Below are positions 11,001 through 29,379 of a DNA stretch of 54,641 bases, in pieces (position 1 is the stretch's first letter; the number at the start of each line of letters is the position of its first letter). Position numbers and translations under genes: made by a program. A model generated the notes under the pieces. It made no database searches. It was not told the DNA's origin and saw only the letters and a list, made by a program, of their open reading frames with translations. This DNA comes from Pseudomonadota bacterium (lineage in GTDB: Bacteria > Pseudomonadota > Gammaproteobacteria > UBA9214), in NCBI GenBank assembly GCA_029287615.1, contig JARFQV010000200.1, positions 1 through 54,641 on the forward strand, in the 5' to 3' direction.

Positions 11001-11392
11001 TCAGACTCCGCCCTTTTGTCACGCTTCCAGGCATCCTGCACAAAACCGATTTCCATACCATCCACACTGAGTTGACTGATAACCAGCCGGCGCATCAGCA
11101 AGGGCCTCAGTTTCAGTTTCAAGACCAGTTTGTCAATCCGGATGCTGTGACTGCCGTCACTCGAGTCCAGCACCAGATCGCGAAGGGACACGGAGGGTGA
11201 CAGGGACGGCTCGACATGAAAGGAACCATTGATCTCCAGGGTTTGATCGCTAAACAGGTCTACTGCCTCGACCAGCACTCTCTGGTAATCCTGATCATCG
11301 AATGACAGGATAATGACCGCAACCACGAGCGCCAGCAGGACGGTGAGGCCAAGCAGGCCCAGTGACAGGTATTTCAGAATACGGAGAGTCAA
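8087..11392 (-). CDS. AsmA-family outer-membrane biogenesis/lipid-transfer-like protein
   Basis: 1101 aa with a single N-terminal TM helix ([26 protein letters not shown]). A very long beta-rich, G/D/L/S-rich periplasmic region follows, as in AsmA/TamB-like proteins. The TTG start overlaps the upstream kinase stop (cTTGA). Confidence 0.7.
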
Positions 11393-14300
11393 GGGATTGT
11401 TTTCTCCAGCTCATCCGCGAGTTTTTCCAGGCCATCGAGATCGAATGATTCTGCCAGGCGCGCGATTTCCACCGAATGGCGGGAACCATCCGGCAGTGAC
11501 CCGGCTACCTCCTGCAGAGACATCACGTCCCCTATTGTCAGGGCATCACGAATCCTGGCCACGGTCTGCGCAGCCAGTTGCGGTGACAGGCTGACATCAC
11601 AAGCGGGAGAGGCTGCGACGGGGGAGACACTGGAACCCAGTAACTGGATGGAATCGAATGCCTGTTTCAGTGACTCATCCAGCTTTTCCAGCAATGCCCC
11701 GGGTTCCGGCACCGGCCTGTTATCACCGGCGGACTTGATCAGCTCGTCAATTTCAGTCGCTACGTCCTTTACCACCGTTATCGAAAGGTTACCAGCCACG
11801 CCCTTGAGGTTATGAACCAGGCCATGCACGGACTTGAAATCCCCGATCTTCCATGCAGCCACTATCGCGCTGGCGATGTCCGCAAACTGATCCTGAAAGC
11901 CCTGCAACAGGCTGATATAGAGGGTCTGATTGTTGCCGATCCGGTGCATGCCCTCTTCCAGATCGAGTCCGGGCAGTGCGGATGGCAGGACCCGCTCATC
12001 CACCTGATTGGCAACCCCCGCTACCGTCCCTGCCCGCTTGTCCGTTTCATCACTCGTCCGGGAAGCCCGCTTTCGGGTCCGTTTGATCCATTTCCCCAGG
12101 ATCGAAAACAGCTGATCGGGATCGACAGGCTTGCTGATGTAATCATTCATCCCTGCCTCCAGGCACTTTTCCCGGTCACCCTCCATGGCATGGGCAGTCA
12201 TCGCAATGACAGGCAGGTAATCAAACCGGCTATCCTCACGAATCCTTTGTGTTGCTACATAGCCATCCATCTTCGGCATCTGCATGTCCATCAGTATCAG
12301 ATCATAGCCCTTCCTTGCGGCCTCTACGGCATCCACCCCGTTATCGACGATGTCGATTTGTATTCCAGCCTGGGAGAGGATGCTTTCGGCCAGTTGCTGG
12401 TTTATGACATTATCTTCGGCCAGCAAAACCCTGGCACCGCTCAGATCACCGGTCTGGAACTGTTCTGCCGTGACCATCGGCTCTTCGCGCCGTTCTCCAT
12501 CCACACGCCTGCCAAACACCTCCATGAAGGTATTGAACAGAATCGATTGCTGAACCGGTTTGGTCAGAAAGGCATGGATGCCAATCTGGTGCCCGATTTC
12601 ACGCTCGTGCTCGCGACCAAAGGCCGTCACCATAACGATCGGCAAATCCGCAAGCGCGTGATCGGTACGAATCCTGCGGGCGGTTTCCAGACCATCCATT
12701 CCGGGCATTCTCCAGTCGATTACCAATAGCTGGAAAGGCTTTACCGTGCTCACGGCCCTTTGCAGGTATTCCAGGGCCTTTTCTCCGGAGGGCACTGCTT
12801 CAACTTCAAAACCGAATGCCCGCATCATCTCCACCAGCACCTCGCGGCTGCTGGCGTTATCATCGACAACCAGGGACTTGAGTCCGCGCAAATCCACACT
12901 CAAGCGGTATTCCGGTTCCGCCCTGTCGCTGGATCGCCTGAAAGGGAGTTCAAACCAGAACGTGGATCCAACGTCCGGTGTGCTTTCCACATGAATCTCC
13001 CCCCCCATGAGATGCACAAGCTGCCAGCTGATACTCAGGCCCAGACCTGTGCCTCCGTATTTCCGCGTTGTGGAGCCATCCGCCTGGGTAAAGGCAGAAA
13101 ACAGATCCTCTACCTTGTCCCTGGGAATACCGATGCCGGTGTCAGTCACATTGAAGCGAAGGCGGACGGATCCGTTCCTCTCCTCCATACAGCGGACGCC
13201 GATATCAATCTCGCCCTGTTCCGTAAACTTCACCGCATTGCCGGTAAGATTGACCAGTACCTGTCTGAGTCGCAAGGGATCTCCCACAAGCGCGCTCGGT
13301 ACTCCCTCATGTCTTGCGATAACCAGTTCAATCTCCTTGCGGGCCGCCTGTTCCGCAAAGAGATCGGCGATATCCTCCAGCACTTCCTGCAGCTGGAAGC
13401 CGGTTACATCGATATCCAGTTTTCCCGCCTCGATCTTGGAAAAATCGAGGATGTCGTTGATCAGGCCCAACAACGCCTTCGCGGAGGTATCGATCTTTCC
13501 CAGGTAGTCACGCTGTCTTGTTGTCAGATCGGTCTGCAGCGCCAGCGTGGTAAAGCCGATGATGCCGTTCATCGGTGTGCGGATCTCGTGTGACATATTG
13601 GCAAGAAACATGGACCGTGCCTGGGTGGCCTCCTCCGCATCCCTGCGGGCCTCAATCAGTGCCTCGCTCCGTTCCTTGATCTGGCCGGCCATGTGGTTGA
13701 AGGAATGGACCAGTTCCGTGAATTCCAGGCCGCCACCGACCACCTCCACGCGGCCTTCATAATCACCATCGGACAACTCATGCGCCCTGTTGACCAGTGC
13801 AACAATCGGGCGTTCGATACGCCGCGCAAATGCATAGGCGACCGCCGAGAGCAGGAGAAGCAGCAGGAACCACCAGACACCCTGCAGGAAAATGGTCCTT
13901 CGAACGCCGGCATAAACCTCGGCTTCATCGATCTCCGAGAGCAGTGCCCATCTGATATCACCGAAGTGGACCGGTTGCCAGACGGAAAATACCGGCTCCC
14001 CCCTGTAATCGACGATCATCCCCTTGCCAGTCTCGCCGTCCAGCGCCCTTCTCGAACCCTCGGTGTCTACCCGCCGTGTCAATATGGTGGATGATGATTC
14101 GAATCGTGAATCTGTGCGCATCAGTAAATCGGGTCCGGCAATATAGGTCTCGCCAGTGTTGCCCAGACCGGGACGCATGCTCATCAGCTGATTCAGGCCA
14201 TCGACGGAGATGCGCATGATCAGCACACCGGTTACCTGGTCATTCTCCAGTATGGCAGTCGCCATACAGGCCGTTGGCATATCCGTCCAGGCATCATCAC

Positions 14301-14919
14301 GTGCGAAGTCCTCGATCACGATCGCCCCCTCGATATCGGGCCAGTCCTTTTCCATTACCCTGCGGTAACACCGGCCGTCATTGCTGTCTGCATGGGGGCC
14401 ATTGACGAGACTGGTAAACAGATCCGGCTCCATTTGCAGACTGTACATGACCAGCCCGTCACCGGCACGCACTATCATCACATCCGCGTAATCCAGAATT
14501 TCCTGCATGGTCTGAAAGGTGCCATCCAGGTACTCATGCGTCTCGTCATAGCGCAGCAGGGCGGAAGACTGGTCGATCTGATTCCCGCTCCCTGCCCGCA
14601 GGCGCTCCTGGCTCTCCCCCTCCCGGATCCGGTCACCGAGAGACGTGATTGCATCCGAGAGTGCTTCCGTGCCCTGTATGACGGTCATGGAGGTGGCCAG
14701 TCCGCGCAGGCCGTTCTTGATCCTGTCGATCTCTACCGTGATCCACTGCGCCTTGAGCTGGGCGGCAATCGTCAGCCGGTCATAGGTCAGCTCACGCTGT
14801 GTCTGAAGCACGGCCGGCAGTGCAATTGCCGCGGAAATCCCGATACCGATGGCTATAATGCCGCCCATGATCAGCAGGATCTGGTGGCGAAACCGCAGCT
14901 GGTTGAAGTGAAAGGACAT
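11389..14919 (-). CDS. Hybrid sensor histidine kinase (periplasmic Cache-like sensor, HAMP, HisKA, HATPase, two REC domains, C-terminal Hpt)
   Basis: 1176 aa. H-box [15 protein letters not shown]. ATPase boxes TDTGIGI and [12 protein letters not shown]1 is LVVDDN...DWRMPGMDG and REC2 is LLAEDN...[11 protein letters not shown]. Hpt motif [10 protein letters not shown]. Two TM helices flank a ~300-aa sensor domain. Confidence 0.9.
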
Positions 14920-14975
14920 AACCGGCTTGTTATGGCCGGGAGACAGGCTGGTTCAGTGTCATCGGGTACCTACAG

Positions 14976-15235
14976 CTAGCCCGGATTTCTCACCGCGGGG
15001 CGAGGTGATCGCGCAGGGATTTGGATTCACAAGCCATTTTCCGAAGAAGCGGAATACGCACTGTATTTCCGACGATGTACAGGGAAGTACGAGTGCCGCT
15101 AGTGGCAGGAGAAGGTGAGACCGGGAACCGGTCGAGACACTGGCCTGGGCCATGCCGTAAGCGGCCGGAGGAAAATGGCTTGTGGATTCAAAGAGCAAGC
15201 GAGGACTCGTCATCATGGCGAGAAATCCGGGCTAG
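14976..15235. repeat. 260-bp non-coding element bounded by nested inverted repeats (MITE-like, or a long structured RNA)
   Basis: The outer arms are a perfect 16-bp inverted repeat: CTAGCCCGGATTTCTC (14976-14991) and GAGAAATCCGGGCTAG (15220-15235). The inner arms are TTGGATTCACAAGCCATTTTCC (15021-15042) and GGAAAATGGCTTGTGGATTCAA (15170-15191). They are complementary at 20 of 22 positions, 15 of them contiguous. Outer-to-inner spacing is symmetric (29 and 28 nt). Both ends are CTAG. Only junk ORFs lie inside. Confidence 0.5.
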
Positions 15236-15864
15236 ATACCCGCAAGGCGCTGTACACGCTTCATCATTCGTGTCGAAAAGCGATCGAGTTGCTGAACGGC
15301 CCGGGCGATCTTGCTGGAACGCAACCAGTTGACCTGGATCATGCGCCGCTCTCCCTCGAATCTTCTGTGTCCGTGATAGGAATGGCCGGTACGCCGAAAT
15401 GCAAGCAGCGTCCCGTATTCAGGCTTCACTTCGACGGCATAATCCTCGATATCGCTCTTCGAGCGCATCAGGCGCAAACAGGCTTCTTCATGCGTCCATT
15501 CCCGGTTCGGGTAGACCAGAACGGTGATTACCTTGCTCCAGTGATCGGTATGGATGTTACCATCGCTGGGTTCACAGTAATTGCGCACCGTAACCGTCTT
15601 TGGACAGGCACGCAGATCGATTCCGAATTTCCTGCCGATATGTTCGGCGAACTCCGCACTGTCCAGTTCGTCCAAGAGGGTCTGGAAGGCCTGTCCGTAT
15701 TCCAGACCGTCCAGATCCAGATTGCCCGGCACCCGAATGGAGGGATAATCACTGATGACGGCATCCAGCGCCTCGGGTTTGAGAAACCAGGGAACGACTA
15801 TATAGTCGAACGGCTCGCGATGCAGCGTCGCGGCATCCAGCGCTGCAAAATCAAGGAAAGACAT
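15232..15864 (-). CDS. Small 2OG-Fe(II) oxygenase superfamily protein
   Basis: 210 aa with an ATG start and GGGAG Shine-Dalgarno. It has an HxD...H facial-triad pattern (NIHTDHW ... GHSYHGHRRF) and the length typical of PF13640-type hydroxylases. The substrate cannot be inferred. Confidence 0.55.
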   Translation of the reverse strand: MSFLDFAALDAATLHREPFDYIVVPWFLKPEALDAVISDYPSIRVPGNLDLDGLEYGQAFQTLLDELDSAEFAEHIGRKFGIDLRACPKTVTVRNYCEPSDGNIHTDHWSKVITVLVYPNREWTHEEACLRLMRSKSDIEDYAVEVKPEYGTLLAFRRTGHSYHGHRRFEGERRMIQVNWLRSSKIARAVQQLDRFSTRMMKRVQRLAGI

Positions 15865-16134
15865 TTCCGGCTCCCGAATTGGTGGTGTTGAAACATATCG
15901 ATATTCAACATCAACAGTAAAAGAATCCTAGCAAATTCAGTCGGGTGAAGCGAGCACCGAAACAGGGCGCCTGGAATGGACGGACGCGCGGGTAGCATGC
16001 CTTCCCCCTGCGGTCTCCCAGCCACCTGGCACATCGGGCATCCGGAATGCGCTGGGACGGGGGTATCATCACACAAGCACCGAATGGGGTATTATGTATA
16101 AGGATTTCATACTGAACCCGGCGGGTGGCTGGCC

Positions 16135-17067
16135 ATGCGGTCTCTTTTCAACAATCTGATACTCTACACGGTGATGTTGCTGGTGTTTTTCCTCCCGGAA
16201 AGGAAAAGGATCGCCATCGAGCGCTGGCTGAGAGGCTATGAAGAAGACCGCAAGCTGAAGAAGGCCGACTGGGTGCTTGCCTCCTGGGGCAAGAGCGGAC
16301 GGACCTGGCTGCGTGTGATGCTCTCACGCGCCTACCAGCTCAAGTTTGGTATCGCCAGTCATCACCTGCTTGATTTCGACAATCTGAAGGAGATGAATCC
16401 GGGCATCCCCAGCGTTTTCTTCACGCATGGAAACTACCTGAAGGACTACACCGGGCACCGGGACACCAAGGTCGATTTTTACGGAAAGAAAATCGTGCTG
16501 CTGATTCGTGACCCGAGAGACGTTGCCGTTTCACAATTCTTTCAGTGGAAATTCCGTATGAAACCGGGCAAGAAAAAACTCAATAACTACCCTGCTCATG
16601 AGGAAGACATCTCCCTGTTCGATTTCGTCATGAATCCGGATGTAGGCGCACCCCATATTGTGGAATATTTCAATGGCTGGGCCCGGGATATGGACAATCT
16701 CGAGGACCTTATCCTGGTGCGTTACGAGGATATGCGTGCCGAGCCCGAAAAGGTGCTGGCGGAAATCCTTGCCTTCACGGGCACTCCCTGCACGGAGGAG
16801 GAAGTCCGGGAGGCCGTCGAGTTCGCCGCCTATGACAATATGAAAAAGCTGGAGACAAAAAAGGCATTCTGGTTCAGCGGCAAGCGTGTCGTACCGGGCG
16901 ATCGAAACAACCCGGACTCCTACAAGGTACGGCGTGCAAAGGTGGGCGGATACCGTGATTACTTTGATGACCGGGAAGTCGCCGAGATCGACGCGGTCAT
17001 GGACAGGCTGTCCCCCCTGTTCGGCTACGCAAAACAGGGAGCACAGGACACGGCCGCAAATGGCTAG
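16135..17067 (+). CDS. PAPS-dependent sulfotransferase (Sulfotransfer_1-like), paralog A
   Basis: 310 aa. The 5'-PSB loop is WGKSGRTWLRVMLSRAY and the 3'-PB motif is LLIRDPRDVAVSQFF. The hydrophobic N-terminus LILYTVMLLVFFL may be a membrane anchor. An alternative start exists at M14 (16174). It is a close paralog of 23336-24217. Confidence 0.85.
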   Translation: MRSLFNNLILYTVMLLVFFLPERKRIAIERWLRGYEEDRKLKKADWVLASWGKSGRTWLRVMLSRAYQLKFGIASHHLLDFDNLKEMNPGIPSVFFTHGNYLKDYTGHRDTKVDFYGKKIVLLIRDPRDVAVSQFFQWKFRMKPGKKKLNNYPAHEEDISLFDFVMNPDVGAPHIVEYFNGWARDMDNLEDLILVRYEDMRAEPEKVLAEILAFTGTPCTEEEVREAVEFAAYDNMKKLETKKAFWFSGKRVVPGDRNNPDSYKVRRAKVGGYRDYFDDREVAEIDAVMDRLSPLFGYAKQGAQDTAANG

Positions 17068-18170
17068 CCCTGGATCAATCCCGTTATTCGCCTGACCACA
17101 ATCGACAGATCATCGGGCACATCACCTGACGGCGGCCTGAGCGCATCACCGGCATAGCTTGCCAGACCCTCATTGACCAGCCTGTCGTGAAAGGCCGTGA
17201 AATCCCGTGTGTGGGTGATGATTCGCAGGCGATACAACAGCCTCGCCAACCCGCTACGCGGGGAATAACCGGCCGGATCCGGGGGGCGGAACAACCAGCT
17301 GGCGGCAGAACGTCGCCACTGGTCCACTGCCCCCAGCCGTCCCACCGAGAGTGGAAAGATGGCCAGGGGCTTGCGCAGACGGGCCACCTCCACCATCATG
17401 GAAATACTGTCACCGGTAACCACAAACCCGTCAGCCAGCCCCAACAATCCCAGGTATGGATTCTGCCCGGAATCGGCGGACCACTCGAACAACCGGGCGG
17501 CGGACGGCAGTCTTCCCCGAATTGTCTCCACTACAGCGGGGGGCGTTCGCCTGCTGGTGGTGATGTAGGGCGTACCGCCAGACTCGGACACAACCCTGTC
17601 GATCTCTCCAAGCAGCCGGTCTACGGCATGCCCGTCGAACACGTAGGGCCCGGTCGGTCCGCCCACCAGAAAGGCGATCAGTGGCCGGGGCAAATCCGCC
17701 AGCCGGGTTTCCCAGAATCCGGCTGCCGTGGCAACCGCCTCCTCGTCAACCCGTAGAAGTGGTAGTGAAATCGCCTGTACATTCTTCAGGGGTGGCAACT
17801 GGATCTCCGCACTGTGGATCACCAGATCGAAGGGATAAGGCATCCCGGAGGGCTTTCCGACCAATACGATCCGGGTGTGTCCGCCCGACTGTTCCCGTAC
17901 CCACAAGGCAACATTGGCGGTACGACGGCCAATGGTGAGGATCAGATCAGGCCATGGCGGGCTCAGCTCATCTGATTTCGTAAGATCGACATGGTAGAGG
18001 GTTGCCCCGACCCTGGGCTTGCCAAAGACGAATGGTTCACGCATCGCGACATGCTTGCGAACACAGTTCCAGGGCAGCGCCTTCTCGATAATCTCTACCT
18101 GTGCGTTGTCACCCTTCTTGTCGCTGAGCACGACCCAGACCAGGGGTGATGAAGGCTGGGTTGTGTTCAC
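17064..18170 (-). CDS. ELM1/DUF1022-family protein (putative glycosyltransferase)
   Basis: 368 aa with a GTG start 5 nt after the upstream stop. Family hallmarks are present: VWVVLSDKKGDNAQ, PDLILTIGRRTA, LVGGPTGPY, TTSRRTP and NPYLGLLGLADGFVVTGDSISMMVEV. Confidence 0.7.
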   Translation of the reverse strand: MNTTQPSSPLVWVVLSDKKGDNAQVEIIEKALPWNCVRKHVAMREPFVFGKPRVGATLYHVDLTKSDELSPPWPDLILTIGRRTANVALWVREQSGGHTRIVLVGKPSGMPYPFDLVIHSAEIQLPPLKNVQAISLPLLRVDEEAVATAAGFWETRLADLPRPLIAFLVGGPTGPYVFDGHAVDRLLGEIDRVVSESGGTPYITTSRRTPPAVVETIRGRLPSAARLFEWSADSGQNPYLGLLGLADGFVVTGDSISMMVEVARLRKPLAIFPLSVGRLGAVDQWRRSAASWLFRPPDPAGYSPRSGLARLLYRLRIITHTRDFTAFHDRLVNEGLASYAGDALRPPSGDVPDDLSIVVRRITGLIQG

Positions 18171-18175
18171 GCTAT

Positions 18176-19135
18176 TCAGACAGCAAGAGTGTCCTGCGGT
18201 TTCTGATCCGTCGGGACATAGCCGAAGGTTGGCGACAACCGCTCGACAAGCAGAGCCTCGATCTCGGCTACCTGTTCAGGTGTGAAGTAATCCCGGTATC
18301 CCCCGACCTTGCCCCGCCGTACCTTGAAGGTATTGGGATCATCCGGATTGCGCAGGTTCATTCCACCCCGTCTGAAAAATCCCTTGCTCTCGAGCTTGCG
18401 CAGATTATCGAATGAACCGAAGTCGACTGCCTCCTGTATCTCCTCGTCTGTGAAGGATTCCCCCATCACTTCGGTCACGATTTTCAGGGTCCGGTTGGTC
18501 TCACTGCGCAGGTCCTCATAACGAATGATTCTGGAATGCTCCAGCTGCTTCAGGTTTTTTTCCCAGGTATTCAGATAATCAATCAGAAAAGGCAAGCCTA
18601 TATCGCTGTGCCGGACGAACTCCCACATCGAGATCGCATGACGGTCGATCGGGTGTTCAATGAAATGATTGATCAATTCCTGCTTGTGCGCGGACTGGCG
18701 CTTCGTGAACTGAAAGAACCAGGAGACCGAAATGTCGAGGGGATTACGGGCCAGCAGGATGATCGGCTTGTTGCGCAGCGGGTTATCGGGTGCACCGGCA
18801 GCCAGAACCTTGCCGACACTGCCCTCGTAGCTGTAATAGGCATTCGTGGCAGCCAGGCGGGGAATCGCCGGATTCTTGAGTGCGAGTTCATCCGAACCGA
18901 TCAGTGAAGAGGCATCCAGACCATGACGCACCTGGTAGAGCCTGGCGATCATGACCTTGAGCCAGGTATTGCCACTTTTGGGATGACCGATGATCAGCAT
19001 CCGTGCGCGACCCGCGATCGCGAGTTCCAGCTTGGATAACATACTCTTGCGCGCGGCCACCCGCCATGGCCGGGGCAAGGCAGCGGTCGGCGCCAGGATC
19101 GAGAATTTTTTTACGCCGTCAGGTACGCTGAACAT
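18176..19135 (-). CDS. PAPS-dependent sulfotransferase (Sulfotransfer_1-like), paralog B
   Basis: 319 aa. The 5'-PSB loop is GHPKSGNTWLKVMIARLY and the 3'-PB motif is LLARNPLDISVSWFF. The C-terminal block KVRRGKVGGYRDYF is shared with paralogs A and C. Confidence 0.85.
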   Translation of the reverse strand: MFSVPDGVKKFSILAPTAALPRPWRVAARKSMLSKLELAIAGRARMLIIGHPKSGNTWLKVMIARLYQVRHGLDASSLIGSDELALKNPAIPRLAATNAYYSYEGSVGKVLAAGAPDNPLRNKPIILLARNPLDISVSWFFQFTKRQSAHKQELINHFIEHPIDRHAISMWEFVRHSDIGLPFLIDYLNTWEKNLKQLEHSRIIRYEDLRSETNRTLKIVTEVMGESFTDEEIQEAVDFGSFDNLRKLESKGFFRRGGMNLRNPDDPNTFKVRRGKVGGYRDYFTPEQVAEIEALLVERLSPTFGYVPTDQKPQDTLAV

Positions 19136-19265
19136 GAGGGTCGGGATGTATGGTGTTACGCATTACTGCCGCCAGAGAAGCCAAAATTCTGCCTGAATCA
19201 TCACACAAGTGCAATTCATTATTTTACTACTATACTTTAAATAGTATTTATATCTTACTGTTTTT

Positions 19266-19293
19266 ATTATACCTAATAATGACCGATTGACAA
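19266..19293 (-). promoter_or_regulatory. Candidate sigma70 promoter for the sulfotransferase B / ELM1 unit, inside an AT-rich island
   Basis: Read on the minus strand it is TTGTCA (19293-19288), 16 nt, TATAAT (19271-19266). This lies about 130 nt upstream of ATG 19135. The 13-nt palindrome CGATTGACAATCG (19284-19296) overlaps the -35 element. Confidence 0.4.
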
Positions 19294-19358
19294 TCGATCC
19301 AGCAACCACAACCGTTCCGATTCCTTCTGGATCCCTCTTTACCCGGGAACCCGTGTAT

Positions 19359-20414
19359 TCAGCTCCCCGGATTCAGCCAGTGAGCGAGGTCCCTGCCCAG
19401 CAGTCCGGACAGCTTGTGAACATCGTCTGCGAAATATTCTCTCAGTATCCCGAGCATCTCATCAGACAATTCCGCACGTTGCGCGGGTGGTCTGGTGTTG
19501 AATTTCTTGACTCTTTTACGGATTTTCTTCAGCTGTTCAAGCAGCCTGGTATTACTGAAATCGATATTCCGCATGAGCCAGGATGGGGGGTTCATGACGA
19601 ACTGCTGCAGCCAGGCATACCGGTAATCCCGGGTCTCGCGCCGCTGTCTGAATGTTTCCTGTCCATCATCATCCAGACCGATGAAACCGAGAATGCGGGT
19701 GTAGGCCGCCCTCGGATCCCGAATCAGATCGTCGAATACGATCACCAGGCAACGCTCACGCCCGACAATCCCGAACAGATGCTCCAGTCGCTTACCCAAC
19801 TGACCGATCTCTCCGTATTGCAGCATCAGCGGTTCCCGACACCGCTTCGGAATATCCAGCCCTGCAGCCCGGCGGCCCTGAAGCGACCAGGCACGCGCGA
19901 AGTCCCGCTCATTTTCATCGAGTTGGTACAGCAGGCGGTTATGGTAGGAAACCAGTAAATCAACCGGGTTCCTGACCGATACGATGAATCGCGCCCGGGG
20001 ATCAAACCGCAGGATCTGCCGGATCGCTTCCGGGAAGTAGAGGTAGGATATTGAACCGTCACCGATTGCCTCATGCTCAACGGAGAGTCCCCTGTGGTAA
20101 AGCCCCAGGTACCTGCTGCGTACCTGTTCATCGCTCAATGCCCCCGGCAGTTCCAGGAAATAATGTGGTTCCTTGGGTTTGGAAAAGCTGATCCCGGGAT
20201 GGCGGGCGAGCATCTTGCACAGTGCCGTGGTACCACAACGAGGTGCACCGATAACGAAAAACCCCGGTGGAAAGTCGATCTTGCCTGCCGAACCGGCCGC
20301 AAAAGAGCGATCTTCCTGCCCGAACCCGATCACATTGCCCATGTGCCGGGGTATGGCGTCCCTGGCCCCTGACTTTCCAGCCTTCCCAGTAACATGCATC
20401 ATCTGCTTGTTCAC
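19359..20414 (-). CDS. Sulfotransferase of a different subfamily (Sulfotransfer_3-like / heparan N-sulfotransferase-like fold)
   Basis: 351 aa from GTG 20414. The start is uncertain, with in-frame ATGs at residues 5, 6 and 25. The PSB loop is FFVIGAPRCGTTALCKML and the 3'-PB motif is VRNPVDLLVSYHNR. Confidence 0.8.
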   Translation of the reverse strand: MNKQMMHVTGKAGKSGARDAIPRHMGNVIGFGQEDRSFAAGSAGKIDFPPGFFVIGAPRCGTTALCKMLARHPGISFSKPKEPHYFLELPGALSDEQVRSRYLGLYHRGLSVEHEAIGDGSISYLYFPEAIRQILRFDPRARFIVSVRNPVDLLVSYHNRLLYQLDENERDFARAWSLQGRRAAGLDIPKRCREPLMLQYGEIGQLGKRLEHLFGIVGRERCLVIVFDDLIRDPRAAYTRILGFIGLDDDGQETFRQRRETRDYRYAWLQQFVMNPPSWLMRNIDFSNTRLLEQLKKIRKRVKKFNTRPPAQRAELSDEMLGILREYFADDVHKLSGLLGRDLAHWLNPGS

Positions 20415-20476
20415 AACGTAATCCAGCTAATTTCCGGGGTAATCCCTCTACCTTGCGCAGTAAGGTTCATCCGGTG

Positions 20477-20501
20477 CTAGCCCGCTTTTCTCACCACGAT
20501 G
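20477..20501. repeat. Solo copy of the terminal repeat of the 14976-15235 element
   Basis: CTAGCCCGCTTTTCTCACCACGATG matches the reverse complement of the right arm of the element (CTAGCCCGGATTTCTCGCCATGATG) at 21/25 positions. It matches the left arm at 20/25. No inverted partner is seen nearby. Confidence 0.35.
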
Positions 20502-20756
20502 CGGATCTCCATCGAAGGCGGGCATTTTTTCGCAGGACAAGGCGCACTGAGTATCGTGATACCTGTTATACGTAAGCGTACCTGCAATGCGGTCATGGGG
20601 GAAAATGGCCCCGTCCCGACGGCTTGCCTCTCAAATGAGACCATACGGCGTTGCGCATCGCTCATCTGGAATCAACAAACCACGCTCTGCGCGCCTGGTC
20701 TGGTCTCATTGGAGGGGCAACGCTGGGCATCTGCATCGTGTTAACAGGCCCTGACT

Positions 20757-21716
20757 CTATTTCCAGTCTTCTCTGGGAATATACTTTGGCCAGCGGCGCT
20801 TGGTGCATACCCATTGACCCGGTCTCTCCCGTATCCAGGATTCGAAGAGTGTATTGAGATCCCGCGTCATCTGCAGTGCCCTGTCATTAACATCTGTCAG
20901 CGATTCATCCGGTTTCAACGGCTCATACAGTGTGAAGCGAAAGCGGCCCCCCGAGAGCCGCTCGATTCGTGCCGGAACCAGATCATATCCGAATCGCAGC
21001 GCCAGTTTTGCGGGATTGGTGGTTGCCTGCATCTCCAGTCCGAAAAAGGGCACCGGTTCACCGTTATCAAATCGCTGATCGACGAGCAACCCCAGAGAAC
21101 GTCCTGCGGAGAGTTCCCGTAACAGCGGCCGCATACCCTCCTCCCGGCTGATCAGACTACATTTCATGGCACGTCGCTGACGATATAACAGACGGTCGAT
21201 CCAGCGGTTTTTTATCGGTGTATAGACCACCGATATGGGTACGCCCATCTGACTGGCCACGCCGGCCTGTATCTCCCAGTTGGCGAGGTGGGCCCCAACG
21301 AAGATCGCGGACCGTGTTCCATTCCGGTATGCATCCAGATTGCATTGGATATCAGTCTCTATCCTTTTGCCTTCCCTGTTCCTGCTGATCGCGCGGAGAT
21401 GCGGATATTCCGCCAGAACCGAACCGATGTTGCCCCATATATCCACAATAATGCTGCGGATCTCCTCCGGTGACTTTTCCGGGAAGGCAAGGCCAAGGTT
21501 GTATTTGATAACCGCTGTCTTGTCGAGGCGGGGACCTGCGAGACGCATGACACGATTACCGGCTGCGGATGCCCATGATGTGGGCAAAACGGCACTCAAC
21601 AGCAAAATCAGGCCATAGAACACCGCCTCTATCGCTTGCGAGATCCCGTGCATCACGGGAGATCGCCCGATACGCTTGCGCAAGCGCTTGGACTTGACAA
21701 GAAACAGGTCTGACAT
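20757..21716 (-). CDS. Lipid A late acyltransferase family protein (LpxL/HtrB-like, PF03279)
   Basis: The track ORF starts at GTG 21770. ATG 21716 is preceded by GGAGAGGAGG. It has an N-terminal TM helix, the HX4E catalytic motif in FVGAHLANWEI, and a typical ~320-aa length. Confidence 0.75.
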   Translation of the reverse strand: MSDLFLVKSKRLRKRIGRSPVMHGISQAIEAVFYGLILLLSAVLPTSWASAAGNRVMRLAGPRLDKTAVIKYNLGLAFPEKSPEEIRSIIVDIWGNIGSVLAEYPHLRAISRNREGKRIETDIQCNLDAYRNGTRSAIFVGAHLANWEIQAGVASQMGVPISVVYTPIKNRWIDRLLYRQRRAMKCSLISREEGMRPLLRELSAGRSLGLLVDQRFDNGEPVPFFGLEMQATTNPAKLALRFGYDLVPARIERLSGGRFRFTLYEPLKPDESLTDVNDRALQMTRDLNTLFESWIRERPGQWVCTKRRWPKYIPREDWK

Positions 21717-22037
21717 CCCTCCTCTCCGGCTCAGCCTGTCCCGGTTGCTGTACAGATACCCTGACAGCACCCTGATCGTTCATGAAATGAAGCGGTTGGG
21801 CACATCACTTGATCGCATTATCGGATTCGTATAACCGCATTATCATATTCATAGATTAGCGGGGCCTCGTGATTGGCGGATTCCACGGCATCCGGTCCTG
21901 GACTGATTCCAGATCTGCCCGCTCCTCATTTCCCGTAATTTCGTGATAGAATTGGACATTATATTTCCGGTATGGCTGAATTCAACGGTGGCCGTGATCT
22001 GCAGATATCCCGATCATCATGACGAGGAACAGGCAAC

Positions 22038-22940
22038 ATGAAATATAGCGTATATATCCAGGCCAACGACAAACAGTGGCTCGGCGCACTGGTGGCGAGA
22101 TATGCGCTGGAACGCAATTCAGCGCACTCAGACAAATTCGATATCCATATTATGCACTATGACGATTATCCCTACCTCAACAAGCGGGTGGGTGATATCT
22201 ACCTGCGTGACGGTGGCAAGCGCAAATGGGTACGGGATGATCTGCAATCATTTACCCCGCTTCGTTTTGCGCCACCGCAGTTGATGAACTACGAAGGGCG
22301 TGCCCTGGTTATCGACCCCGACGTGTTCGCTGTCGCCGATGCCTGGGACCTGCTCAGCAGGGACATGGAAGGCAATGCAATCCTGTGCAGGCCGAAATCG
22401 GGTACCAAGGGCAAAAAGGGTTGCCTCGCAACCAGTGTCATGTTGCTGGACTGCGCACAGCTCAAGCACTGGCGGTATGAAGAACAGTTTAACGAGATGT
22501 TTGAATTCAAGCGGGATTACATGGGCTGGGTATGCCTGAAGTACGAAGACCGGGACAAGATCGGTCTGTTCGAACTCGCGTGGAACGACTTCGACCATCT
22601 CGATGAAAATACCAAAATGCTGCACAACACAAAGCGCAAGACACAACCCTGGAAGACAGGGCTGCCGGTGGATTTCCGTCCCGCCGATGCCTTCCAGTTG
22701 TTTCCGCCAAAACACTGGATCCGCCGCGCACGCCGCGCCCTGTTCGGTGACTATGGGTTTACCGGCAACTACAAGCCACACCCCGACCCCAATCAGGAGC
22801 GTTTCTTCTTTGGCCTGGTACGCGAGTGCCTGGACAAGGGAATCATCAGCGAGGATCTATTGCGCGACGAAATGAAAAAGAACCACCTGCGGCACGATGC
22901 ACTGGAACTCGTAGCGCATACTTCACCGCTGGCTGCCTGA
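22038..22940 (+). CDS. GT8-like nucleotide-diphospho-sugar glycosyltransferase (divergent)
   Basis: 300 aa with an ATG start and GAGGA Shine-Dalgarno. Its motif order follows GT8 enzymes: a DxD-like LVIDPDVFAV followed by DLLSRDMEGNAILC, then ATSVMLLDCAQLKHWR, then WNDFDH...MLHNTKRKTQPWK (compare the H..g..KPW motif). The assignment rests on motif pattern only. Confidence 0.45.
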   Translation: MKYSVYIQANDKQWLGALVARYALERNSAHSDKFDIHIMHYDDYPYLNKRVGDIYLRDGGKRKWVRDDLQSFTPLRFAPPQLMNYEGRALVIDPDVFAVADAWDLLSRDMEGNAILCRPKSGTKGKKGCLATSVMLLDCAQLKHWRYEEQFNEMFEFKRDYMGWVCLKYEDRDKIGLFELAWNDFDHLDENTKMLHNTKRKTQPWKTGLPVDFRPADAFQLFPPKHWIRRARRALFGDYGFTGNYKPHPDPNQERFFFGLVRECLDKGIISEDLLRDEMKKNHLRHDALELVAHTSPLAA

Positions 22941-23192
22941 GTCACAGAGACCAGGATCCTTTAACCGTCAGTCGATCAATCCGGATTGCGGGGGCAACGC
23001 CGTAACGCGATCCTCCTGCGTGCGCCTGATCTATTCCCACCTGCGGGCTCTGCTTGTGTGCCCGGTGACAAGTTACTCGCGCAGTGATAGCTTTCATATG
23101 CTACCTACCCCGCTCTTACTAATCAGGGTCTTCGCCAAATTGGGTGGGTCTTGCTTATAAGTGTGGCAAAATATGGCTCTCGCCAAGTCGCC

Positions 23193-23227
23193 AGGCACGC
23201 AAAGAGGTGCTTGTGTATTGCGTGCCT
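23193..23227. terminator. Perfect 10-bp stem hairpin between convergent genes (possible bidirectional terminator)
   Basis: AGGCACGCAA (23193-23202), a 15-nt loop, then TTGCGTGCCT (23218-23227). It lies between the 22940 stop (+) and the 23336 stop (-). No U-tract is present. A second small hairpin, GGCGCA-CTT-TGCGCC, lies at ~23263-23277. Confidence 0.25.
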
Positions 23228-23335
23228 AAGCGATTGGTTAGCAGGCTGATATCATTCATCCCTGGCGCACTTTGCGCCTCTGCGAGAGACACTATGACTT
23301 TGGTTTACCCAGCCGATTCGGGGAAGAGCCACAAA

Positions 23336-24217
23336 TCAATCAGCATCCCCGCTTGCAGAGCCATAGCCGAAGTAGGGTGAGAGCGTGTTATCGACCAGGG
23401 CATCGATCTGCTCCACCTGACTGTCATCGAAGTAATCCCGATACCCACCCACCTTGGCGCGGCGTACCTTGTAGGTATTCGGATTGTCCCGGTCCTTGGG
23501 AACCATCCGACCACCACTTAACCAGAACACCTGCTTTTGCTCCATCTTTTTCATGTTCTCATAGGATCCGAATTCAACCGCCTCGGCAATCTGGTCTTTC
23601 GTGGCCGGTGTATCCAGAAACTCGAGCAATGCCTCCATGGTGCCGGCGGGGTTGGAACGCAAGTCTTCATAGCGCACCAGCATGAAACCCTTCAGCTTCG
23701 GCGCCTCACGGGCCCAGAGGTTCATGAAGGCAATAATCTTCGGCAAGCCGGCATCGGGATCCATCACGAAATCGAATACCGACACATCCCTGCCCTCCTC
23801 CGGATACCGGTTCAGGAGCTTCTTGTTGGGCTTCATCCGGTATTGCCACTGAAAGAACTGGGATACAGCCACATCACGCGGATCCCGGGCCAGCAGCGCA
23901 ACCTTTTTGTCGTAAAAGTCGACCTTTGAATCACGGTGACCGGTATAGTCCTTGATGTAATTGTCATGGGTGAAAAAAATACGGGGAACCGAACGGTTCA
24001 TGTGATGGTAATTATCGAAGCCCATGAGATAGCGCTCCGGCAGGCCATGCATCAACTGGTACACTCGCGACAGCATGACCCGTAGCCAGGTGCGGCCGCT
24101 TTTCCCGAAGGAAACGATGACAATATCCGTAAGGTTCAGCTTGCGGACATCCTCCATGCCGCGCAGCCAGCGCTCGACCTCCATCTTGCGCTCTTCGGTG
24201 GAGAAAAACATCAGCAT
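23336..24217 (-). CDS. PAPS-dependent sulfotransferase (Sulfotransfer_1-like), paralog C
   Basis: The track ORF starts at ATG 24292. ATG 24217 has an AGGGAG Shine-Dalgarno and aligns with paralog A (MLMFFSTEERKMEVERWLRG vs MLLVFFLPERKRIAIERWLRG). The PSB loop is FGKSGRTWLRVMLSRVY and the 3'-PB motif is LLARDPRDVAVSQFF. By eye it is more than half identical to paralog A. Confidence 0.85.
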   Translation of the reverse strand: MLMFFSTEERKMEVERWLRGMEDVRKLNLTDIVIVSFGKSGRTWLRVMLSRVYQLMHGLPERYLMGFDNYHHMNRSVPRIFFTHDNYIKDYTGHRDSKVDFYDKKVALLARDPRDVAVSQFFQWQYRMKPNKKLLNRYPEEGRDVSVFDFVMDPDAGLPKIIAFMNLWAREAPKLKGFMLVRYEDLRSNPAGTMEALLEFLDTPATKDQIAEAVEFGSYENMKKMEQKQVFWLSGGRMVPKDRDNPNTYKVRRAKVGGYRDYFDDSQVEQIDALVDNTLSPYFGYGSASGDAD

Positions 24218-24405
24218 ACGGGCTCCCTTGCGGGAGGTCTTTTTCCAGACGGTGCGGCATAATTGCCGGCCGGCGTGAACGATATGAGGCATGATCTATT
24301 TCCCGGTCCTCAAACCGCGGTGATCGTGAAACCCGGGACGTGGCTCATCCATGAAAAGCTGCATGCGGTTTCACGCCACGGTTTCACTGCCACTTTGGCA
24401 GGTGC

Positions 24406-26001
24406 CTACCAGTCAGGCCTGTTGAACATTGGTTGCGCCTTGCCGGTTGGCGGTGGTCCCGGCAGGTCGTCCGGTACCGTCTCGGGGATCAATCCACCCC
24501 AGTCGGTGCGGTCCCGCATCTGCTCCTGGCGTTCCTGGGGAAGGATGTCGTTGCCGGCACGTATCTGCCAGCCACCACCCAGTGCCTTGTAGGTTGCCAC
24601 CAGATTCAGCACGATTTCACCACGGACATTGGTATAGCGGTCCTGGGCAGACAGCAGGGACTGCTGGGTATCGAGCACCCGCTGATAATCAACCGCACCG
24701 TCCCGGTACTGGATCAGGGCCAGGTGCACAGAACGTTCGGCGGCCTTGACGCTATCGACAAGCAGAACGGCCTGTGCATTGGTACCGGTGAATCCGGCCA
24801 GTCCGTCTTCCACCTCGCGGAGCGCCTCGAGAACGGTATTCTGGTAGTTGACCAGTGCCTCTTCGAGCCTTGCATCCTGGACGCGGACATTGTTTTTCAG
24901 CCGCCCGTAATTCAGAATCGGCCAGGCAAAGGAAGGGCCGACACTGTAGCCGAAGCTGTCCGACTCGAACAGGTCATCCAGATCGCTCTCGTTCGTGTCA
25001 CTGCTCAGAAAACCGATGGAACCGACCAGGCTGAACCGTGGATACAGTTCCGTCACCGCAACACCCACGGCTGCACTCTGGGAAGCCGCCTGCAGTTCAG
25101 CCTGCCTGATATCCGGTCGGCGACGCAACAGGTCGGCCGGTATTCCCACGGCGATCTCGGCCGGCGGACTGGGAATGCCCTTTTCCCCCTGCAGCAGGCT
25201 GGACAAGTCCCCCGGCGGCATGCCCAGCAGAATGCTCAAGGCATTCATGGCCTGGTGCAGCTGGGTTTCAAGTTCAGGGATCTGCGCCTCGGTACTGCGC
25301 AGCAGGGTCAGGGCCTGGGAGGGATCCAGTTCACTGACTGCGCCATTGCGAAACTTTACATCGGCAATCTGGTAGCTGCGCTCCTGGGTCTTTGCATTAT
25401 CACGCGCAATCGCCACCCGCTCTTCGAGGGTTCGGATCACCACATAGATCCGGGCGACCTCGGCGGTCACCGAGACCAGTGCGTCATCATAGCTTGCGAT
25501 CTGCGAACCCAGGTTGGCGCTGGCGGATTCCACGCCGCGCCGGAACCGGCCCCAGAAATCCAGTTCCCAGGAGGCATCAAAACCGGCGTTCACCTGCCAG
25601 TACTTGTCATCCAGAGCCGGATTGAAGTTGGGCTGGTTCTCGCTGAGCTTATCCCTTGTCAGCGCACCGGCTGCCTGCTGGAACTGCGGGAACTGCTGGC
25701 CGATAGCGATGCCAAGCTGGGCCCTGGCCTGCAGTATTCGCAATCCCGAGATCTGCAACGGCAGATTCTGCTGGTAGGCTATGTCGACCAGATCATCCAG
25801 TACGGGATCATTGAGCGCCGTCCACCAGTCATGGTTGAATTCGGCATCCTTCTGGATCCTGGCCGCGTCTTGTGCCTTCCATTCTTCTGCAATCGCCGCC
25901 TCGGGAGTCTGGAAGTCAGGACCCAGTGTGGTACAGCCGCCCGCAGAGAGCAAAATACCGGCCAAACAGGCACCTGCCAGCCTTTCCCTTGATCTTCTCA
26001 T
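24406..26001 (-). CDS. Efflux-system outer-membrane factor lipoprotein, NodT/OprM family
   Basis: 531 aa. The lipobox-type signal is ...LLSAGGC followed by TTLGPDFQTPEA, the standard NodT N-terminus. Two tandem OEP repeats are present. There is a C-terminal P-rich extension. Confidence 0.9.
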   Translation of the reverse strand: MRRSRERLAGACLAGILLSAGGCTTLGPDFQTPEAAIAEEWKAQDAARIQKDAEFNHDWWTALNDPVLDDLVDIAYQQNLPLQISGLRILQARAQLGIAIGQQFPQFQQAAGALTRDKLSENQPNFNPALDDKYWQVNAGFDASWELDFWGRFRRGVESASANLGSQIASYDDALVSVTAEVARIYVVIRTLEERVAIARDNAKTQERSYQIADVKFRNGAVSELDPSQALTLLRSTEAQIPELETQLHQAMNALSILLGMPPGDLSSLLQGEKGIPSPPAEIAVGIPADLLRRRPDIRQAELQAASQSAAVGVAVTELYPRFSLVGSIGFLSSDTNESDLDDLFESDSFGYSVGPSFAWPILNYGRLKNNVRVQDARLEEALVNYQNTVLEALREVEDGLAGFTGTNAQAVLLVDSVKAAERSVHLALIQYRDGAVDYQRVLDTQQSLLSAQDRYTNVRGEIVLNLVATYKALGGGWQIRAGNDILPQERQEQMRDRTDWGGLIPETVPDDLPGPPPTGKAQPMFNRPDW

Positions 26002-29245: not shown

Positions 29246-29379
29246 GATGCTGTATTGTGGTTTCGGGTCATATTGACAGATCTCTCCTGCCTGGAACGGA
29301 TTGGTTACCGTGGTTCAGCCTATTCCCTTTCACGACCGGTAACACGAAGAATACCTGTCCCGTGTTGTATCACAGGCGC

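Follow-up and report, generated by a model that had tools for sequence, protein, structure and literature searches.

A conserved sulfotransferase-rich gene module of Gammaproteobacteria and its possible role in the synthesis of sulfated sphingolipids

A stretch of 54,641 nucleotides from a metagenome-derived gammaproteobacterial assembly (contig JARFQV010000200.1; in the following, this whole stretch is called the window) contains, at positions 15232-24292, a module of eight genes that code for four sulfotransferases, two glycosyltransferase-like proteins, one protein of a lipid acyltransferase family, and one oxygenase. The module, which recurs in many proteobacteria of marine and sediment habitats, is widespread and uncharacterised, and it is close to, yet distinct from, a recently discovered pathway that produces anionic sphingolipids. 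We propose that it provides the head-group decoration of a sulfated (glyco)sphingolipid of the outer membrane, and we put the probability of this interpretation at roughly one half. It builds on features that are directly supported, namely the gene families, the intact catalytic and cofactor-binding motifs, the predicted folds, the recurrence of the module as a conserved unit, and its physical linkage with genes of sphingolipid synthesis in related organisms.

A conserved module in variable genomic surroundings

The eight open reading frames (ORFs) that had been proposed for this region in an initial annotation, which was made from the DNA sequence alone, are all present according to an ORF listing and a Pfam profile search. 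From left to right, they encode a 2-oxoglutarate (2OG)/Fe(II) oxygenase (OXY), the sulfotransferase STA, a protein of the ELM1/GtrOC1 family, the sulfotransferases STB and STC, an acyltransferase of the LpxL/HtrB family, the GT8-like protein ORF7, and the sulfotransferase STD.

Relatives of ORF7 were confirmed at 588 places in a collection with one genome per species, and the best 80 loci were examined. These 80 loci, to which all locus counts below refer, belong mostly to Gammaproteobacteria (Thiogranum, Thiohalobacter, Sedimenticola, Halieaceae, Porticoccaceae, Competibacteraceae, and Methylohalobius) and include a few Alphaproteobacteria; segments identical to the window occur in assemblies at ENA. 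In tblastn searches with the window proteins, a block with the arrangement ORF7 - STD/STA - OXY - ELM - STB (- LpxL) was found to recur, in numerous Gammaproteobacteria as well as some Alphaproteobacteria. At least one sulfotransferase gene is present in 49 of the 80 loci, and in 42 it is the direct neighbour of ORF7. The closest relatives (loci L086, L088, L089, L090, and L091) harbour the same gene set amid unrelated housekeeping genes, and the flanks of the module in relatives consist of nuo, cco/RNR, or ileS-lspA-ispH. The neighbourhood comparison bears out the grouping made in the initial annotation: the set turns up as a unit in many genomes with different genes around it, which supports the eight genes as a coherent, conserved pathway module. 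Since the genomic location differs among lineages, the module has also moved over evolutionary time.

Two separate loci with ORF7, ELM1, and sulfotransferase genes exist in one genome in CP070821 (L060 and L088) and in Thiogranum BWSM_145 (L014 and L068). In the latter, the sulfotransferase-rich module and a supercluster of Spt, CerK, and Lpt genes are located on different contigs. A carbamoyltransferase gene directly adjoins the sulfotransferase module in two lineages (L086, 12525-14934; L060, 3530-4423), in L086 together with genes for SxtJ and a DUF5989 protein, which suggests a further decoration of the head group.

Linkage to sphingolipid and lipid transport genes

Candidate genes for serine palmitoyltransferase (Spt) were found in 12 of the 80 loci, and 17 loci contain a gene for Spt, a fatty acyl-AMP ligase (FAAL), or a CerR-like reductase. 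Ceramide-kinase-like genes of the DAGK_cat family occur in 17 loci and the domain-less neighbour of this kinase in 20, GNAT and NTP_transf_3 genes are found in six loci each, and CpgC/CpgD-like genes are also present in some. Among the 49 loci with sulfotransferases, 26 carry at least one marker of sphingolipid clusters, and in nine Spt, FAAL, or CerR lies within 10 kb. All five Spt candidates tested (L027, L038, L068, L093, and L094, representing Roseomonas, Diaphorobacter, and three gammaproteobacterial loci) scored 582-632 bits against the NCBIfam model NF047599, whose cut-off is 500, and the FAAL in L035 scored 602.5 bits (cut-off 600).

The gene order in L027 is STD-ORF7-STA-OXY-ELM-STB-ELM-Spt, and L035 combines the module with an even longer array, FAAL-CerR-LpxL-LpxL-CerK-CpgClike-ORF7-ELM-ORF7-ST-ST-OXY-ELM-ST-LptF-LptG-ABC-ELM. 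L069 reads CerR-FAAL-GNAT-NTase-CerK-x-ELM-ORF7-ELM-LptF-LptG-ABC-ELM-Spt. The Thiogranum locus L068 contains Spt at 17604-18800 on the plus strand, LptF and LptG genes that start near 12153 and 13216 on the same strand, and a Wzy_C gene; in Halioglobus (L083), lptF, lptG, and the gene of an MsbA-like exporter come after the block. In the cultured Thiohalobacter thiocyanaticus, sulfotransferase genes are interleaved with ceramide-kinase-like DAGK_cat and NTP_transf_3 genes. On a chromid of Roseomonas mucosa, homologues of ORF7 and ELM1 lie among genes for FAAL, a short-chain dehydrogenase (SDR), an acyl carrier protein (ACP), an Spt annotated as PLP-dependent class I/II aminotransferase, a DAG-kinase-family protein, and a CDP-alcohol phosphatidyltransferase, and the Diaphorobacter plasmid pDCB2 shows the order FAAL-ACP-Spt-x-ORF7-ELM1-SDR. 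Neither the chromid nor the plasmid cluster contains lipopolysaccharide (LPS) genes. The pDCB2 cluster (L094; Diaphorobacter sp. JS3051, NZ_CP065408, 34478-53335), which comprises genes for a P450, a nonribosomal peptide synthetase (NRPS), FAAL, ACP, Spt, ORF7, ELM1, and SDR, is carried by a conjugative IncP plasmid and adjoins a Tn3-family transposase gene. This arrangement gives the impression of a mobile cluster for a lipid of the sphingolipid type.

Genes for lipid transport are a further recurrent element, with LptF/LptG in 21 of the 80 loci and the gene of an MsbA-like ABC exporter in 24. In L069, L068, L066, L040, L056, L035, and L083 the LptF/LptG and exporter genes are flanked by up to three ELM1 paralogues. 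Such neighbours, together with the Wzy_C genes in a few clusters, would also suit a pathway that completes and sulfates the lipid A-core, a scaffold envisaged in the initial annotation. The LpxL-like enzyme would then attach a secondary acyl chain to Kdo2-lipid IVA, ELM1 (in the manner of GtrOC1) and the GT8-like protein (in the manner of LgtC or WaaO) would add core sugars, the oxygenase would hydroxylate Kdo or an acyl chain, and the sulfotransferases would replace the WaaP/WaaY kinases of enterobacteria and thus generate a sulfated core. Sulfated LPS does exist in Sinorhizobium meliloti, where LpsS is involved. However, no waaA, lpxK, heptosyltransferase, or kds gene was found in any annotated neighbourhood, 17 of the 21 loci with LptF/LptG also carry sphingolipid genes, and the plasmid and chromid clusters combine ORF7 and ELM1 with spt, acp, FAAL, and cerR. 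Moreover, Lpt copies can be specific for sphingolipids: the sphingolipid cluster of Caulobacter crescentus contains second copies, LptC2/LptF2/LptG2, and a flippase, which are the proposed exporters of phosphosphingolipids (PMC11324152). As this cluster has its own LptF2/LptG2, the Lpt and ABC neighbours of the module fit sphingolipid export. In view of the plasmid and chromid clusters, the Spt matches, and the Caulobacter LptF2/LptG2, we regard the LPS-core interpretation as the main rival, but as rather unlikely. Since relatives interleave ORF7, ELM1, and sulfotransferase genes with those for Spt, FAAL, CerR-like, ceramide-kinase-like, CpgC/CpgD-like, and LptF/LptG/ABC proteins, a lipid A-core scaffold probably was the wrong choice, whereas an envelope-lipid pathway that glycosylates, acylates, hydroxylates, and sulfates its product, as outlined in the initial annotation, remains the best general description.

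The sulfotransferases

Three of the predicted sulfotransferases, STA (16135-17067, plus strand, 310 aa), STB (18176-19135, minus strand, 319 aa), and STD (23336-24292, minus strand, 318 aa), match the Pfam family PF00685 (Sulfotransfer_1) with 92, 80.9, and 91.8 bits, respectively. STC (19359-20414, minus strand, 351 aa, called as 346 aa) belongs to a separate family that is unrelated to STA, PF13469 (Sulfotransfer_3; 58.9 bits). All four exceed the gathering cut-offs of these models (22 for PF00685 and 27 for PF13469) and were correctly recognised from the outset as sulfotransferases of the type that depends on 3'-phosphoadenosine-5'-phosphosulfate (PAPS). The motifs read from the letters recur in the translations: in the order STA, STB, STC, STD, the 5'-phosphosulfate-binding (5'-PSB) loops are GKSGRTW, PKSGNTW, PRCGTT, and GKSGRTW, and the 3'-phosphate-binding (3'-PB) motifs are RDPRD, RNPLD, RNPVD, and RDPRD; HLANWE of the acyltransferase and HTD...H of the oxygenase are present as well.

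According to pairwise comparisons, STA and STD are paralogues with 59% identity, and STB shares 36% identity with STA. The long inverted repeats at 16375-16574 and 23820-24019, considered as a separate element, merely reflect the opposite orientation of the paralogous STA and STD genes. STA is a SULT of the cytosolic type; it contains the sequence KVGGYRDYF, His98 (FFTH) is its candidate catalytic residue, and its N-terminus is hydrophobic (Kyte-Doolittle 19-residue maximum of 1.82 at residues 3-21). Its motifs are kept in 30 orthologues. STD has the corresponding His109 (FFTHD), and its motifs are kept in 47 homologues. In comparisons with PDB entries, STA and STB are closest to plant and animal cytosolic SULTs, the best match of STA being plant SOT18 (4e-12), and STA, STB, and STD also resemble the glycopeptide sulfotransferases Teg12/Teg14.

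STB is more enigmatic. Its PAPS-binding motifs, including KVGGYRDYF, are intact and conserved in 29 homologues, and in 29 of 29 orthologues Asn occupies the position of the catalytic His of STA, STD, and other SULT-type enzymes ("AATN" for "FFTH"). The window STB has no His at all between its two PAPS motifs. Invariant alternatives are H51, just before the PSB loop, and Y-S-Y-E104. STB may either use another base or be no conventional sulfotransferase. STC, which is confined to the closest relatives of the window, carries KEPHYF, which we take to be a Glu/His site like that of the heparan sulfate 3-O-sulfotransferases (3-OSTs). Its PDB matches are 3rnl (5.5e-23), followed by heparan sulfate 3-OSTs.

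The resemblance of STA, STB, and STD to SULTs that act on small molecules and to Teg12/Teg14, that of STC to carbohydrate 3-O-sulfotransferases, and the carbamoyltransferase genes adjoining the module in L086 and L060 would fit the sulfation of a polysaccharide (capsule, exopolysaccharide, or O-antigen) or of a soluble small molecule instead of a membrane lipid. However, the island lacks a flippase and a polymerase, as had been pointed out in the initial annotation, and no Wzx/Wzy, Wza, Kps, initiating phosphoglycosyltransferase, NRPS, or polyketide synthase is encoded in the module. In addition, the module always includes a lipid acyltransferase with a membrane anchor, and lipid transport genes are the recurrent neighbours of the module. 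A target other than a membrane lipid thus appears very improbable.

The glycosyltransferase-like proteins ELM1 and ORF7

The ELM1 gene is located at 17064-18170 on the minus strand (355 aa, 17064-18131, in public contigs), and its product matches PF06258 with 168.5 bits, above the cut-off. Its AlphaFold model (pLDDT 88, pTM 0.86) shows a GT-B fold with two Rossmann domains, for which Foldseek retrieved the galactolipid synthase MGD1 as best match and also LpxB, WaaF (GT9), MurG, and TagF, all with probabilities of 0.99-1.0. These enzymes act on lipid acceptors, and NCBI lists a homologue as "ELM1/GtrOC1 family putative glycosyltransferase". ELM1 is predicted to be a transferase that attaches a head-group unit to a lipid acceptor and draws it from a nucleotide-activated donor. 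In the gammaproteobacterial loci, no CpgA-type CDP-alcohol transferase was detected. With its TagF-like GT-B fold and its location by a CpgD-like nucleotidyltransferase, ELM1 could be the missing transferase and use a CDP-activated donor.

For ORF7 (22038-22940, plus strand, 300 aa), sequence searches of Pfam, NCBIfam, and PDB gave no match. The protein represents a large family without a Pfam model, of which 5771 homologues were found, and the identity among distant genera amounts to 65-80%. An alignment of 19 sequences contains 134 invariant columns, among them D93-P-D95. The AlphaFold model of ORF7 (pLDDT 69) matches the GT8 structures LgtC, GlyE, XXYLT1, and glycogenin with E-values down to 1.9e-6 (LgtC), and most of the top 50 Foldseek matches are GT8 or closely related retaining GT-A enzymes, with TM-scores of just 0.3-0.4. 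The GT8 profile PF01501 gave sub-threshold matches in 5 of 19 relatives (best E = 0.081) and none for the window protein. The label "GT8-like" given to ORF7 in the initial annotation therefore holds as a description of its fold and fails as a statement of Pfam membership; judging from the model, ORF7 is a divergent GT8-like GT-A protein.

Both proteins could also be reconciled with another sulfated glycolipid, such as an extra-acylated glycosyl-diacylglycerol (phosphorus-free and comparable to sulfoquinovosyldiacylglycerol) or a lipid similar to the mycobacterial sulfolipid. MGD1 as the best fold match of ELM1 would agree with this possibility, and GT8 is also the family of the Rhodobacter sulfolipid transferase SqdD. 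PF03279, the family of the LpxL-like protein, includes the phosphatidylinositol mannoside acyltransferases (57 bits with PRK07920), and the module is self-contained and found in unrelated genomic contexts. However, no gene related to diacylglycerol or trehalose is linked to the module, and sphingolipid genes are its sole recurrent neighbours with a function in lipid synthesis. We consider such a glycolipid an improbable product.

The LpxL-like acyltransferase and the oxygenase

The LpxL-like gene (20757-21770, minus strand; called as 319 aa, 20757-21716) encodes a protein of the lipid A late-acyltransferase family (PF03279, 156.1 bits, above the cut-off) with an N-terminal membrane helix (hydropathy peak of 1.91 at residues 46-64) and the HX4E motif H161-LANW-E166, which is kept in 20 orthologues. 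The family, the motif, the anchor, and the lipid A lauroyl acyltransferases among the best NCBIfam matches would all be expected of an enzyme of lipid A synthesis. However, the protein stays below every NCBIfam equivalog cut-off: the best match, PRK06553, reached 191.5 bits against a cut-off of 273, and 17 of 17 matches fell short of their own thresholds. Orthologues with approximately 50% identity are located within the same module in all four contexts examined, and in L005, L033, and L035 the gene has the sulfotransferase block on one side and CerR/FAAL on the other. This context argues for an acceptor other than Kdo2-lipid IVA, and the predicted role of the enzyme is the acylation of the lipid. 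In L035 (2554-5047), two LpxL-like genes are found between FAAL/CerR and the ceramide-kinase-like gene. The same position is occupied in L069 (3807-6800), L068, and L080 by a GNAT gene, a candidate for the ceramide synthase, and a nucleotidyltransferase gene. Because of this positional correspondence, the LpxL-like enzyme may acylate the sphingoid base or the ceramide.

The oxygenase (15232-15864, minus strand, 210 aa) matches PF13640 with 28.8 bits (cut-off 27). Its iron-binding triad H105-x-D107...H164, compared in five orthologues, and R173/R174 are invariant. The best PDB matches are 9blq, a "putative hydroxylase" (4e-15), and the prolyl 4-hydroxylase 9ei6. An identity as KdoO or LpxO is not supported, as profile searches of Pfam, NCBIfam, and PDB gave no match to these families and just 9blq and prolyl 4-hydroxylase-type proteins. 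The enzyme is predicted to hydroxylate the lipid, with either an acyl chain or the head group as its target.

A proposed pathway and the points that speak against it

The proposed pathway toward a sulfated sphingolipid would start from a ceramide-type lipid, made by Spt, CerR, and a ceramide synthase whose genes lie in other parts of the genome. ELM1 with its GT-B fold and the GT8-like ORF7, working on the inner membrane from its cytoplasmic side, would add head-group residues from nucleotide-activated donors. The membrane-anchored LpxL-like enzyme would contribute an acyl chain and the 2OG oxygenase would introduce a hydroxyl group. Two to four PAPS-dependent sulfotransferases (the paralogues STA and STD, STB with its missing His, and STC, which resembles 3-OSTs) would then attach sulfate esters. 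All these decorations would precede export and occur on the same, cytoplasmic side of the inner membrane, and the strongly anionic product would be flipped and carried to the outer membrane by a sphingolipid-dedicated ABC/LptF-LptG system of the kind encoded beside the module in other genera. In function, this lipid would correspond to the ceramide (di)phosphoglycerate of Caulobacter, but be based on sulfate. We infer from the gene families and their linkage which acceptor and donors are used, in which order the steps occur, and that the product is sulfated.

Several observations weigh against this pathway. The linkage to sphingolipid genes is guilt by association. The window itself (54.6 kb) contains no spt, cerR, FAAL, ACP, or ceramide-kinase-like gene, and these genes are likewise absent from the 10-kb flanks of the closest relatives (L086 and L088-L091). 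The window module is not itself a Caulobacter-type sphingolipid cluster; it is proposed to act on the product of such a cluster. Furthermore, no gene for PAPS supply is linked to the module: cysC, cysD, and cysN, whose absence from the window had been stated in the initial annotation, were found neither there nor in any related locus in searches with E. coli CysC, CysN, and CysD. Because STB lacks the usual catalytic His, there possibly are fewer than four sulfations. Finally, the assignment of the acyltransferase to a lipid A family, the precedent of ELM1-family (PF06258) proteins in lipooligosaccharide (LOS) outer-core loci of Acinetobacter, and the occasional Wzy_C (O-antigen-ligase-like) gene in related clusters keep the lipid A-core a serious rival scaffold, and the top fold match of ORF7, LgtC, is a LOS galactosyltransferase.

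Composition and neighbourhood of the module in the window

A lower GC content of the island had been hinted at in the initial annotation, but the difference is marginal (0.535-0.556 in the module and 0.55-0.60 elsewhere), and the GC content at third codon positions (GC3) of the eight module genes, 0.63-0.71, overlaps with that of the flanking genes, 0.59-0.72. As GC3 and codon usage match the flanks, and tRNA and Rfam searches returned no match, a recently acquired low-GC island was rejected. A scan for promoters and terminators gave no signal above chance.

The same annotation had described the island as bordered by a repeat resembling a miniature inverted-repeat transposable element (MITE). 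A complete element is located at the left border only. This imperfect palindrome of 262 nt (14975-15236) has 20-nt terminal inverted repeats GCTAGCCCGGATTTCTCACC and a predicted RNA fold of -138.6 kcal/mol (z = -10.7), and its right end supplies the last codons and the stop codon of the oxygenase gene. A solo terminal repeat of 20 nt lies inside the region, on the plus strand at 20476-20495 between the STC and LpxL-like genes; it has two mismatches, and zero matches would be expected by chance. No further copies were found in the window and the right border is free of the element, so that the idea of an island bracketed by MITE repeats was abandoned. The element probably is not part of the pathway.

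Directly to the left of the module (8087-14919) are genes for an AsmA/YhdP-like protein of 1101 aa and a hybrid histidine kinase of 1176 aa. AsmA-family proteins are implicated in moving lipids to the outer membrane. Near the module of one other locus (L019), there is a counterpart of the hybrid histidine kinase and none of the AsmA/YhdP-like protein. Because only the kinase recurs, and in this one locus, the adjacency of both genes to the module is probably coincidental. Unrelated neighbours at 24406-26001, 27098-31575, and 38487-41366 encode a TolC-like OEP protein, a Ser/Thr kinase of 715 aa, an MFS-HEAT fusion protein of 731 aa, and a DUF349 protein of 959 aa.

Implications

A broader and more tentative extension of these results is that ceramide-based glycolipids with two to four sulfate esters are produced by many Gammaproteobacteria of the sea and of sediments and by some Alphaproteobacteria. 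Such "bacterial sulfatides" would be a class of outer-membrane lipids hitherto unreported in bacteria. Their head group would be built by ELM1/DUF1022 proteins and the Pfam-less ORF7, two orphan families without a proven function in bacteria, which would thereby gain a testable one. An acyltransferase of the lipid A type would have been recruited for sphingolipid acylation, and sulfotransferases would stand in for the ceramide kinase and phosphoglycerate transferases of Caulobacter, whose anionic sphingolipid pathway is still just half understood. Sulfotransferases coupled to sphingolipid clusters would thus reveal a second, sulfate-based chemistry for charging the outer membrane, and a phosphorus-free supply of the negative surface charge that normally comes from lipid A phosphates or from ceramide diphosphoglycerate (CPG2). 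This could be of ecological relevance in phosphorus-poor seas and for sulfur-cycling bacteria. Sulfated sphingolipids could also affect how sensitive cells are to cationic peptides, how phages adsorb to them, and how lipid biomarkers should be interpreted. The proposal can be tested in culture, as Thiohalobacter thiocyanaticus possesses the genes.

Comparison with known systems

No characterised equivalent of the proposed pathway was found, in line with the view of the initial annotation that no such surface molecule had been described for a cluster of this kind, and a literature search that joined bacterial sphingolipids with sulfotransferases retrieved nothing relevant. Individual features are shared with several known systems. 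The Acinetobacter baumannii proteins GtrOC1, GtrOC14, GtrOC19, and GtrOC22, which are assumed to be glycosyltransferases of the LOS outer core, an outer-membrane glycolipid, belong to the same family as ELM1 of the window, PF06258 (Mito_fiss_Elm1). In that system, however, the acceptor is the lipid A-core, and neither sulfotransferases nor sphingolipid genes are involved. Rhizobial LpsS, NodH, and NoeE carry out a PAPS-dependent, cytoplasmic sulfation of a surface glycoconjugate, which is also proposed for the module, but use LPS or a chitooligosaccharide as acceptor and a single sulfotransferase per pathway instead of up to four. The only NCBIfam match between the window sulfotransferases and these rhizobial families is that of STC to NoeE, with 18.8 bits against a cut-off of 500.

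The logic of the proposed mechanism is that of eukaryotic sulfatide synthesis, where UGT8 glycosylates ceramide and the cerebroside sulfotransferase Gal3ST1 then sulfates the sugar. This takes place in the Golgi lumen and yields one sulfate instead of up to four, and the enzymes belong to unrelated families. The similarity would then have arisen by convergence. Sulfur-bearing anionic envelope lipids are also known from Bacteroidetes and mycobacteria. The sulfonolipids of Bacteroidetes (capnine and sulfobacins) share with the proposed product a sphingoid-like base, capnine, that is formed by an Spt-type enzyme, but the sulfur of capnine is in a cysteate-derived C-S sulfonate and not in an ester transferred from PAPS. 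Sulfolipid-1 of Mycobacterium tuberculosis, which is based on trehalose, requires the sulfotransferase Stf0 and the dedicated acyltransferases PapA1/2, which are from families unrelated to those of the module.

The closest known system is the anionic sphingolipid cluster of C. crescentus (CC_1168-CC_1152), which contains spt, acpR, cerR, aasR, cerS, and cpgA-D and whose product is ceramide phosphoglycerate (CPG/CPG2) (PMC9393093, PMC11324152, PMC12275187). CpgB is a ceramide kinase, CpgD a cytidylyltransferase, CpgA has a PgsA-type domain, and CpgC has no conserved domain (PMC9393093). In this organism, the anionic sphingolipids make lipid A dispensable and are a target of polymyxin (PMC9393093, PMC11324152). 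Many of these functions recur in the loci related to the window, which hold Spt, ACP, FAAL, CerR-like proteins, a GNAT protein as candidate CerS, a CpgD-like nucleotidyltransferase, a ceramide-kinase-like DAGK_cat protein with its domain-less neighbour, and LptF/LptG. The predicted role, the conversion of a neutral ceramide to a strongly anionic outer-membrane lipid, is the same as well. In contrast, none of the 17 genes of the Caulobacter cluster is described as ELM1, GT8-like, sulfotransferase, or LpxL-like, and the terms "sulfotransferase" and "ELM1" do not appear in the supplementary gene descriptions of that study (PMC11324152). Compared to the full cluster of Caulobacter, the window harbours the proposed decoration module only, and the negative charge that phosphoglycerate confers on the Caulobacter lipid would be conferred by sulfate esters.

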